Positions 1 to 980 of a stretch of DNA of 4,320 nt are shown in pieces. The notes under the pieces were generated by a model. The model worked only from the letters and a program-made list of their open reading frames with translations. It was not told where the DNA came from and searched no databases. The stretch comes from Escherichia coli (GTDB taxonomy: Bacteria > Pseudomonadota > Gammaproteobacteria > Enterobacterales > Enterobacteriaceae). Position numbers and translations under genes: made by a program. The first letter of the stretch is position 1, and each line of letters opens with the position of its first letter. The stretch is from NCBI RefSeq assembly GCF_003334315.1, contig NZ_QOWR01000100.1; one strand, 5' to 3'.

Positions 1-75
1 ATCTACACAAGAACAGGCGTGTTTCGAGGGGGCATAGAAGACTAAAATACTGCGTACAGCATGAAAATTCATTGA
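1..75. repeat. Terminal redundancy: 1-75 is identical to 4246-4320, i.e. wrap-around of a circular replicon of about 4245 bp rather than a biological repeat
   Basis: Direct read: the 75 nt atctacacaagaacaggcgtgtttcgagggggcatagaagactaaaatactgcgtacagcatgaaaattcattga occur at both ends. The copy at 1-45 is the 3' end of the CDS 3772..4290. Confidence 0.8.
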
Positions 76-210
76 ACAGAGTGTTAGTTCATTTTCGTGC
101 ATGGCTATGCATACACGCAAAACTTATCAGCGCGATTCCGGGCGGTTTTCGGTGAGAAGACGGGCTCTTTTGTGGCTCAGGACGGAAAAACGCCCTGAGC
201 GCGTCTGAGC

Positions 211-238
211 GGTGCGCCCAAGGGATGTTATGGTAAAT
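211..238 (+). promoter_or_regulatory. Candidate XerC/XerD site-specific recombination (multimer resolution) site: GGTGCGCCCAA-GGGATG-TTATGGTAAAT
   Basis: Right arm TTATGGTAAAT is identical to the XerD arm of ColE1 cer as I recall it (GGTGCGTACAA-TTAAGGGA-TTATGGTAAAT). Left arm GGTGCGCCCAA matches the XerC arm pattern GGTGCG...AA. The spacer is 6 bp (as in dif/psi) rather than the 8 bp of cer. Confidence 0.5.
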
Positions 239-248
239 AGTGTGAAGT

Positions 249-266
249 GCCGCCTGTAATGGCGGC
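249..266. terminator. GC hairpin (GCCGCC-tgtaat-GGCGGC) between the convergent cargo genes; possible bidirectional terminator
   Basis: Perfect 6-bp GC stem with a 6-nt loop, 8 nt beyond the stop of the minus-strand lipoprotein gene. The plus-strand side is followed by ttagtta; the minus-strand side lacks a clear U-tract, so terminator function is uncertain. Confidence 0.35.
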
Positions 267-274
267 TTAGTTAC

Positions 275-862
275 CTATTTAACTTTTGCCACTTTAGTCA
301 TGAATTCTTTAATGGAAACAATCGCAGTAGCTTTCCCCCCAGGGATACTTGCAGCTGAGAAATCGATGTCTTGATTACCTTCAGTTGTATGTATGCGAAG
401 GCGGCAGTTTTTAGCCGACACCATCTTTTCTAGCACTTCATATGGGATAACAACGGTATTTTTGCTGGATGTGTAGATCGTTTTGGATACAGTATTGTAT
501 CCACTGTTACTTAGATTAGTTAGTTGCTGTGCTTTATAGCTAGATATCTTGCCATCAATATTTATATCTATTCCTATGAAACCTAAGTATGCGGAACTTC
601 CATTAGATACATTTGAATTGTAGGAAAGGATCAGCCCTACTTGATCTGGTTGGGAGCTGGACCATATTGCTCCTAACTGAAGTTGTGTTCCCCAAGTGCT
701 GTTCGGGTCGTATAGCGAATTTGGAGAGACATCTATGACAGTTGAGTTGTCAAAAGTGGATGTTTGTTGAGAAACCACACCCATTCCCGCCAGTTTATCC
801 ATTGCTGTACAGCCAGAGATGGCTACTACGATCGCAGAAGCAAAAAAAATATTCCTTATCAT
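275..862 (-). CDS. Hypothetical lipoprotein, 195 aa, predicted outer-membrane anchored; function unknown
   Basis: Full ORF in the six-frame track. N-terminus MIRNIFFASAIVVAISGC has a positive n-region, hydrophobic core and lipobox-like ISG-C (Cys18); residue +2 is Thr, not Asp, which predicts outer-membrane sorting. AGGA lies 7 nt upstream of the ATG on the minus strand. The mature protein is rich in Ser/Thr/Asn/Gly. GC is about 33-45 percent in sampled 60-nt blocks, versus about 72 percent in a sampled mob block. Confidence 0.7.
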   Translation of the reverse strand: MIRNIFFASAIVVAISGCTAMDKLAGMGVVSQQTSTFDNSTVIDVSPNSLYDPNSTWGTQLQLGAIWSSSQPDQVGLILSYNSNVSNGSSAYLGFIGIDINIDGKISSYKAQQLTNLSNSGYNTVSKTIYTSSKNTVVIPYEVLEKMVSAKNCRLRIHTTEGNQDIDFSAASIPGGKATAIVSIKEFMTKVAKVK

Positions 863-980
863 TTCGTTATCCTATTTTTTTCTTGTTACCAGAGAGTGAA
901 AAAAGCATCGTATTACCGAAACTATTTTGCACGCGATTTTCTTTTTAAGAAGGATTTTGAAAGGATACGGGCAGATCTTC

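Follow-up and report, generated by a model that had tools for sequence, protein, structure and literature searches.

Background

Do two neighbouring genes whose products are both destined for the cell envelope constitute a single functional system, or are they independent accessory genes that recombination happened to place side by side? This question is raised by a stretch of Escherichia coli DNA of 4,320 nucleotides (the window; contig NZ_QOWR01000100.1 of RefSeq assembly GCF_003334315.1) that carries two cargo genes, here termed L and S, on the backbone of a small mobilizable plasmid. A sequence-only reading of the window had described these genes as an AT-rich two-gene envelope module on a ColE1-type backbone. 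ColE1-type plasmids have been characterized as 'gene capture platforms', or as 'sentinel' plasmids where their cargo is unknown, and a variable AT-rich region on a GC-richer backbone is the described norm for the ColE1 plasmids of enterobacteria (PMC5864857).

To address this question, we compared the window with related plasmids and examined the distribution and genomic context of both gene families. The idea that the two genes make up an unrecognised envelope system fails, and the pairing of L and S is better described as an accident of recombination. We consider it fairly probable that the cargo consists of two unrelated single genes that flank a cer site, were joined by recombination, and have independent roles in envelope protection or exclusion. 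The plasmid illustrates, at the resolution of single bases, how cargo is reshuffled at an Xer core between small plasmids of ColE1 type, which is relevant to how plasmids of this type assemble accessory and resistance genes.

Results

Identity of the plasmid

The final 75 bases of the window repeat the initial 75, which gives a circle of 4,245 bp. The window sequence is 100% identical to the Salmonella Enteritidis plasmid pK (NC_003456.1) and to approximately ten further Salmonella and E. coli records of 4,245 bp. The window represents the whole of pK, a mobilizable ColE1-type plasmid that is present unchanged in E. coli too. This plasmid has been in public databases since 2002 and is common in Salmonella and E. 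coli of animal and human origin. RefSeq labels both cargo open reading frames (ORFs), L and S, as hypothetical proteins, and a literature search returned no paper citing NC_003456 or either protein accession. The features on which the following analysis depends are listed here by their position in the window.

3772..4290, plus strand: gene S, an ORF for a predicted secreted protein of 172 residues, in cargo slot A (mobilisation region to cer)
275..862, minus strand: gene L, an ORF for a predicted lipoprotein of 195 residues, in cargo slot B (cer core to replication origin, ori)
211..238, plus strand: cer-type XerC/XerD core, GGTGCGCCCAA-GGGATG-TTATGGTAAAT, from a pattern search and alignment with ColE1 cer
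46..210, no strand assigned: DNA from the S stop to the Xer core, the position of cer accessory sequences
249..268, no strand assigned: GC hairpin (GCCGCC, loop TGTAAT, GGCGGC) inside a longer AT stem
863..972, minus strand: AT-rich upstream region of L, ~35% GC, with a Shine-Dalgarno-like AGGA (complement of 870-873)
1022..1122, minus strand: RNAI, the copy-number and incompatibility RNA, in the same tract of L036-like ancestry as gene L
1..75, no strand assigned: wrap-around duplicate (copy of 4246-4320) forming the 75-nucleotide terminal overlap and holding the last 45 nucleotides of gene S

The backbone is of ColE1 type because RNAI is recognised at 99.2 bits (Rfam RF00106, gathering threshold 47), the RefSeq annotation includes the mobilisation genes MobC, MbeB and MbeD, and a cer core is present. 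An RNAI/RNAII control region is thus combined with a mobilisation region of class MOB-P, the characteristic pairing of ColE1-type replicons. A 515-residue ORF at 2200-3747 spans all three mobilisation genes, the relaxase was typed as MOBP by MOB-suite, and the mbeA stop codon lies at 3745-3747. A promoter-like sequence at 981-1009 (TTGAGA, 17 nucleotides, TAATCT; -35 element at 981-986 and -10 element at 1004-1009) was assigned by eye from knowledge of pMB1 and ColE1, and we take it to be the RNAII promoter. The GC content is 40% in L, 43% in S and 35% across 863-980, vs 54% in ori and 61% in the mobilisation region. The sequence-only reading had anticipated the individual parts of this plasmid, and each was recovered: the ColE1-type backbone, the AT-rich cargo with its two convergent ORFs, a Xer-like site and a GC hairpin between their 3' ends, and products that comprise a Sec-signal protein and a predicted outer-membrane lipoprotein, neither of them recognisable. 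The claim that the two genes form a module fared differently.

L and S occur together in a single lineage

Co-occurrence was counted among the plasmid records of PLSDB. L is present in 48 records and S in 183, and the two are found together only in the pK lineage; they are adjacent in 12 of the 48 L records and 12 of the 183 S records, all of which are at least 99.9% identical. A query spanning S, cer and L was covered to at least 80% in only 11 records, each of them pK or pK with an insertion, and the twelfth record with both genes is pK disrupted by IS26 in L. Among complete E. coli genomes, L was found in 4 of 5,426, each time on a 4,245-bp plasmid. The sequence-only reading had proposed co-occurrence elsewhere as the check on its module; outside this one clonal lineage, L and S are always separate. 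The exact sequence of each gene is carried by at least 1000 public contigs.

Two derivatives of pK have acquired further DNA. Record NZ_CP135230.1 (5,073 bp) has IS26 inserted within gene L, and NZ_LT985299.1 (13,593 bp, locus L017) has become a tetracycline-resistance plasmid through a TnAs1/tet(A) insertion. L is dispensable for plasmid maintenance, since one derivative of pK has IS26 inside it.

Each gene has other partners. In 14 records, whose backbones fall into at least seven sizes (2.6-6.3 kb), a gene termed here P comes 9 nucleotides after L, and this L-P operon is a commoner partnership for L than L-S. It is represented by locus L004 (489-1583), L006 (1641-2735), L015 (1772-2866) and L016 (2024-2620 plus 1-498). 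P encodes a signal-peptide protein of 165 residues with the motif WGMTPNQV, unrelated to L or S. Searches of Pfam, NCBIfam, PADLOC and PDB sequences placed it in no family, the sole Pfam match being a weak one to DUF6301 (E = 0.003). Elsewhere, L lies beside a RelE toxin gene or is the sole cargo, as in plasmids of 2.6 kb and 4.7 kb.

S is found alone in 4,018-bp plasmids, together with RnlAB, or opposite a different lipoprotein, X7, in 4,251-bp plasmids of Citrobacter, Klebsiella and E. coli. X7 (locus L007, 864-1277; 137 residues, lipobox LISAC) occupies the slot held by L in pK, and Pfam, NCBIfam, PADLOC and PDB sequence searches assigned it to no family. The band of S records at 90-95% identity, typified by the 4,018-bp plasmids, comprises 39 of the 183. 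No BLASTP similarity exists among L, S, P and X7, and the idea that P is a diverged S, which would have rescued the pairing, was dropped. The taxonomic ranges of the two families also differ, with L spread widely across Gamma- and Betaproteobacteria and S mostly confined to Enterobacterales.

Two further observations concern the slots themselves. In the 4,018-bp plasmids (locus L008, 3810-4018, across the record start), the slot equivalent to that of L has a GC content of 38% and carries no annotated gene; two unannotated ORFs, overlapping at an ATGA junction, lie within it, one for a soluble protein of 70 residues and the other for a protein of 59 residues with two hydrophobic segments. X7 is weakly similar (E = 0.002) to the C-terminus of a zinc-ribbon protein on a Shewanella megaplasmid (locus L013, 5387-5920), and the gene for this protein is directly upstream of an L homologue.

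pK is a recombinant at cer

The cer-type core, the putative dimer-resolution site of the plasmid, lies between the convergent genes and has the expected layout of an XerC arm (211-221, GGTGCGCCCAA), a central region of 6-8 bp (222-227, GGGATG) and an XerD arm (228-238, TTATGGTAAAT). The search pattern was matched by none of 200 shuffled sequences, and the core aligns with the ColE1 cer core at 3909-3938, GGTGCGTACAA-TTAAGGGA-TTATGGTAAAT.

The relatives of pK divide at this site. In each S-bearing relative, the match to pK runs from the mobilisation region through S and breaks off where the XerD arm ends, at 238 or 239. For the L-only plasmids L036 and L037, identity to pK is 99% between 188 and approximately 1525, a tract that spans the core, the hairpin, L, the RNAII promoter and RNAI. 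We used L007 and L036 as examples of the S-bearing and L-bearing plasmid types, respectively. Compared base by base, the XerC arm and base 222 of pK agree with L007, base 223 agrees with L036, and past 238 only L036 still matches. By this comparison, ancestry switches from S-type to L-type at 222/223, inside the 6-bp central region of the core, the place of strand exchange by Xer recombinases. Ancestry changes a second time within the conserved ori, between approximately 1200 and 1525. As the change from S-type to L-type ancestry falls inside the central region of cer, the alignments identify pK as a recombinant: L and S have separate evolutionary histories, and the pair was not co-inherited as a module.

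The simplest origin for such a plasmid would be two co-resident ColE1-type plasmids whose cer sites underwent XerCD strand exchange and which, through an additional homologous crossover in their shared ori, gave rise to pK; this is the origin that we infer. The tract of L-type ancestry (223 to approximately 1525) includes the RNAII promoter and RNAI, so the recombination would also have swapped the plasmid incompatibility determinant. The assembly of Hafnia paralvei FDAARGOS_1502, whose records are flagged UNVERIFIED_ORG, has L-P on plasmid unnamed4 (locus L004) and S with RnlAB on unnamed3 (locus L005), both of ColE1 type, which indicates that the co-residence needed for such recombination does occur. 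The alignments do not distinguish Xer catalysis from ordinary homologous recombination inside the short conserved core as the cause of the crossover at cer.

The DNA flanking the core follows the same division. The segment between the S stop and the core (46..210) is conserved among S-bearing plasmids, being common at 99% identity to those with S but without L. Sites of the cer type have ~180 bp of accessory sequences with binding sites for ArgR (the ARG box) and PepA. A blastn comparison detected no similarity between 46..210 and the ColE1 accessory sequences upstream of the core, and the ARG-box consensus was not found in this region with up to 3 mismatches allowed. On the other side, the hairpin at 249-268 lies 6 nucleotides past the L stop codon and has a fold z of -4.4 on the minus strand. 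It is identical in the L-only plasmid L036, travelling with the L-type segment, and probably terminates transcription of L, of an RNA that leaves cer, or of both.

Products of the two genes

The lipobox of L reads A-I-S-G-C, cleaved before the cysteine (AISG|C), in agreement with the pattern [LVI][ASTVI][GAS]C, and its Cys18 is invariant in an alignment of 29 relatives. The next residue is Thr, Ala or Ser in these 29 sequences and never Asp. In E. coli, a residue other than Asp after the lipobox cysteine leads to Lol-dependent sorting to the outer membrane. Because Asp is never found at this position, L is predicted to be lipidated and sorted as a lipoprotein of the outer-membrane type, and UniRef members of its family carry the label 'Lipoprotein'. 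L is modelled as a ~10-stranded beta-sandwich with a helix at the C-terminus (predicted local distance difference test (pLDDT) 86, predicted template modelling score (pTM) 0.80). The ratio of nonsynonymous to synonymous substitution rates (dN/dS) is 0.09-0.13, indicating purifying selection. The family comprises 461 cluster representatives at 50% identity, and L itself matches, over its full length (residues 3-194), phrog_7678 (E = 2e-19), a phage protein cluster of unknown function. The AT-rich segment upstream of L, in which a scan of 863..972 found no consensus sigma-70 site, ends where the conserved ColE1 ori block starts, with homology boundaries at 973/974.

S starts 24 nucleotides past the mbeA stop codon on the same strand, with a Shine-Dalgarno-like AAGGGA at approximately 3760-3765. 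Its signal peptide has the n-h-c layout, with MK, a hydrophobic core and small residues at -3/-1 of a predicted cleavage site ASA|E. RefSeq holds two versions of the protein, WP_011017199 with 172 residues and WP_226564495 with 158, the latter without most of the signal peptide. Family alignments show that the N-terminus and the cysteine pair C40/C146 are kept in relatives down to 32% identity. Because the N-terminus is conserved across the family, the alignments support the start at 3772 over the shorter RefSeq start at 3814. The predicted fold is a small beta-barrel of 8-9 strands with a C-terminal helix (core pLDDT ~85), and mature S, of ~150 residues, is probably a disulfide-bonded periplasmic barrel. 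Its motifs are SYLEGxGEQ, FFDSWGF and RPxW. The family comprises 32 proteins, mostly from Enterobacterales with one record labelled Vibrio cholerae. The dN/dS of 0.17 again indicates purifying selection, and residues 10-161 match phrog_31425 (E = 1.7e-28), also of unknown function. Given dN/dS values of 0.09-0.17, the large L family and the confident structural models, L and S are both genuine genes.

Genomic context of the two families

Outside the small plasmids, relatives of L are frequent in bacteria from soil, the sea and wastewater and in the phages of such bacteria, including Rhodanobacter, Dyella, Marinibactrum, Aliidiomarina and Shewanella. One relative directly follows a repressor-like helix-turn-helix gene in a prophage-like element; in viral contigs, others are beside a CI-like repressor or between endolysin and HNH/terminase genes. 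Another shares with an Ant gene the accessory slot that precedes the tape-measure gene in an Acinetobacter phage, and still others adjoin a Rha regulator, stand at an island edge, or lie in variable islands. No neighbour recurred across the approximately one dozen contexts examined; the contig scan for L relatives used a narrow peptide pattern and returned 7 loci. Relatives of S occur singly, on phage-plasmids of ~106-115 kb and on large plasmids. Members of both families behave as single, promiscuous accessory genes of mobile elements, whether these are small plasmids, temperate phages, phage-plasmids or prophage-like islands.

Several individual loci add detail to this picture. In Acinetobacter phage phi5013-M1 (locus L014, 4788-5297), an L-like lipoprotein gene lies between the tail-chaperone region and the tape-measure gene, and a P homologue holds the same pre-tape-measure slot in pANC7933.3, a phage-plasmid of Acinetobacter sp. 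ANC 7933 (locus L046, 3001-3489). The S homologue of the ~106-115 kb phage-plasmids (loci L009-L011, ~6505-7930) comes after a GIY-YIG nuclease gene and is followed on its 3' side by ~1.4 kb without an annotated gene in all three records. A chromosome contig of Yersinia intermedia (locus L056, 1-6014) has an S homologue near genes for a C39-peptidase ATP-binding cassette (ABC) exporter and an HlyD-like protein, of the microcin-export type, with IS110 separating the homologue from the exporter; an 86-residue remnant after the homologue matches the C-terminus of the anti-phage HerA helicase.

Fragments of L or P at 96-100% identity were also found on tiny, low-coverage contigs of unrelated bacteria, for example Brevibacterium permense (locus L049, 420 nucleotides, coverage 0.88) and Agrobacterium sp. 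(locus L054, 503 nucleotides, coverage 1.4), and partial L or P proteins are labelled Staphylococcus aureus, Acinetobacter baumannii and Metapseudomonas otitidis. These fragments look like cross-contamination by pK-like plasmids instead of records of true hosts.

Three leads on function were set aside. The name 'macrophage stimulating factor' (PMC6118388) concerns a different, pBERT-like plasmid of 4.78 kb and is not applied to L or S in public sources. Some relatives lie near lysis genes, which suggested a spanin; L has no C-terminal transmembrane segment and is far larger than an o-spanin, and members of its family adjoin repressors, sit in accessory slots among tail genes and occur on plasmids. 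Two L-family proteins of 346 residues (P0108 and P0112) have a C-terminal extension without an NCBIfam match and gave no fusion clue to function.

Discussion

Proposed roles of L and S

Each protein, acting alone at the envelope, would shield the cell or element that carries it against an agent from outside. L would be an exclusion factor, anchored by its lipid, that masks or disables a component of the surface or entry route used by phages or incoming DNA. In this it would work like Llp of phage T5 or Cor of phages phi80, N15 and HK022, which are superinfection-exclusion lipoproteins, and would be a positional, non-homologous counterpart of Exc2 of ColE1. S would be a periplasmic binding or inhibitor protein. 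Genomic context favours roles in exclusion or protection; we regard an exclusion factor as the most likely role for L and a periplasmic binder or inhibitor as the most likely role for S. Since the carriers of L include phages, phage-plasmids and small plasmids and its place on pK is that of exc2, L and S are each a testable candidate for an exclusion or protection factor encoded by a single gene. If neither confers an exclusion or protection phenotype, pK would be a cryptic plasmid with two orphan genes.

A broader proposal can be made only tentatively. L may be the founding member of a large unnamed family of outer-membrane lipoproteins that act as single-gene superinfection or entry exclusion factors for the temperate phages, phage-plasmids and small plasmids carrying them, with S an analogous protective periplasmic barrel restricted to Enterobacterales, and the slots flanking cer in ColE1-type plasmids may serve as a shuffling platform for such defences. 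Both genes are widespread, and the L family, with its 461 clusters, has no model in Pfam, NCBIfam or PADLOC.

Certain results weigh against independent roles in protection or exclusion. Neither L nor S has a sequence match in Pfam, NCBIfam, PADLOC or PDB, either as a single sequence or as a family profile; none of L and its 29 relatives reached the Pfam cut-off of E ≤ 0.001, and no PADLOC family of known anti-phage defence includes either protein. The structural matches of both predicted folds are generic only. L was considered as a homologue of Exc2 and rejected, with no BLASTP match, no match to the NCBIfam Exc2 model, and an hhalign probability of 3.5% that reflects the signal peptide only. 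Finally, the recurrence of envelope partners, P with L and X7 with S, could mean that these proteins act in pairs.

Alternative explanations

Of the alternatives to independent protection or exclusion factors, the one that survives best, although we regard it as unlikely, is that at least one of S and L acts as an immunity or inhibitor protein against periplasm-acting toxins or cell-wall hydrolases, such as bacteriocins, effectors of type VI secretion systems, or lysozymes. The Yersinia intermedia homologue of S near a microcin-type exporter is what such a role would lead one to look for. That linkage, however, is interrupted by an insertion sequence and confined to a single species, on the small plasmids S has no linked toxin gene, and Pfam searches matched S to neither MliC nor PliC.

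It is more doubtful that L replaces the function of Exc2 as a plasmid entry-exclusion lipoprotein, lowering the mobilisation of related plasmids without being directed at phages. L shares slot, strand and product class with exc2 of ColE1, and ColE1-type plasmids are known to carry the exclusion genes exc1, exc2 and mbeD (PMC5864857; ColE1 annotation). Yet the two proteins are alike in neither sequence nor profile, the NCBIfam Exc2 model does not recognise L, and many relatives of L reside in phages or prophage-like islands, where exclusion of plasmids makes little sense.

The original expectation, that L and S function together as a single envelope module, such as a complex of a lipoprotein with a periplasmic partner selected as a unit, now appears quite improbable. 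It draws on the adjacency of two intact genes in a widely spread and successful plasmid, on the envelope destination of both products, and on the recurrence of a lipoprotein with a secreted protein where S lies opposite X7 or P follows L. A unit under selection is difficult to reconcile, however, with an adjacency limited to one clonal lineage, with convergent genes that are not co-transcribed and have cer between them, or with a change of ancestry inside the cer core itself. Each gene, moreover, does without the other: S is alone in many 4,018-bp plasmids and in phage-plasmids, L lacks S in the 2.6-kb and 4.7-kb plasmids and in phages, and their taxonomic ranges are not the same.

A virulence-type role in host interaction, such as serum resistance, is highly improbable: it has a precedent in the lipoproteins Bor and TraT, carried by a phage and by plasmids respectively, and would suit a plasmid common in Salmonella and E. 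coli of animals and humans, but no Pfam match to TraT, Bor or other named surface-exclusion or serum-resistance families was obtained with L and its 29 relatives, and the L family is frequent in bacteria and phages of soil, marine and wastewater habitats, in which serum resistance is irrelevant.

Comparison with known systems

Independent single-gene factors, as favoured here, can be set beside several described systems. S resembles the inhibitors MliC, PliC, PhiA and ACP in fold class only; its scores against them are too low to tell homology from a generic barrel fold held in common, and it is larger than they are and has its own motifs. The likeness of L to Llp, Cor and Bor, the last an accessory-gene lipoprotein of phage lambda, is one of gene type and location. 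These are single accessory genes for outer-membrane lipoproteins at module junctions, after lysis genes or near tail or repressor genes, and the relatives of L occur in comparable positions.

In ColE1 (NC_001371), exc2 (3943-4362, minus strand) encodes a small lipoprotein, adjoins the XerD arm at its 3' end and converges with the mobilisation operon, and L holds this same slot in pK. The two differ in length, Exc2 having 139 residues and L 195, and in setting, as ColE1 has exc1 beside exc2 and pK does not. Unlike Exc2, the L family is found mostly on phages and genomic islands.

As a plasmid, pK is similar to the ColE1-type plasmids described for enterobacteria (PMC5864857) in having an ori and mobilisation block of 54-61% GC, a cargo of 35-43% GC, and a cargo function that is not recognisable. 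It differs from them in that its two cargo slots and cer core are demonstrable as exchange boundaries, with the crossover mapped to the central region of the Xer site.

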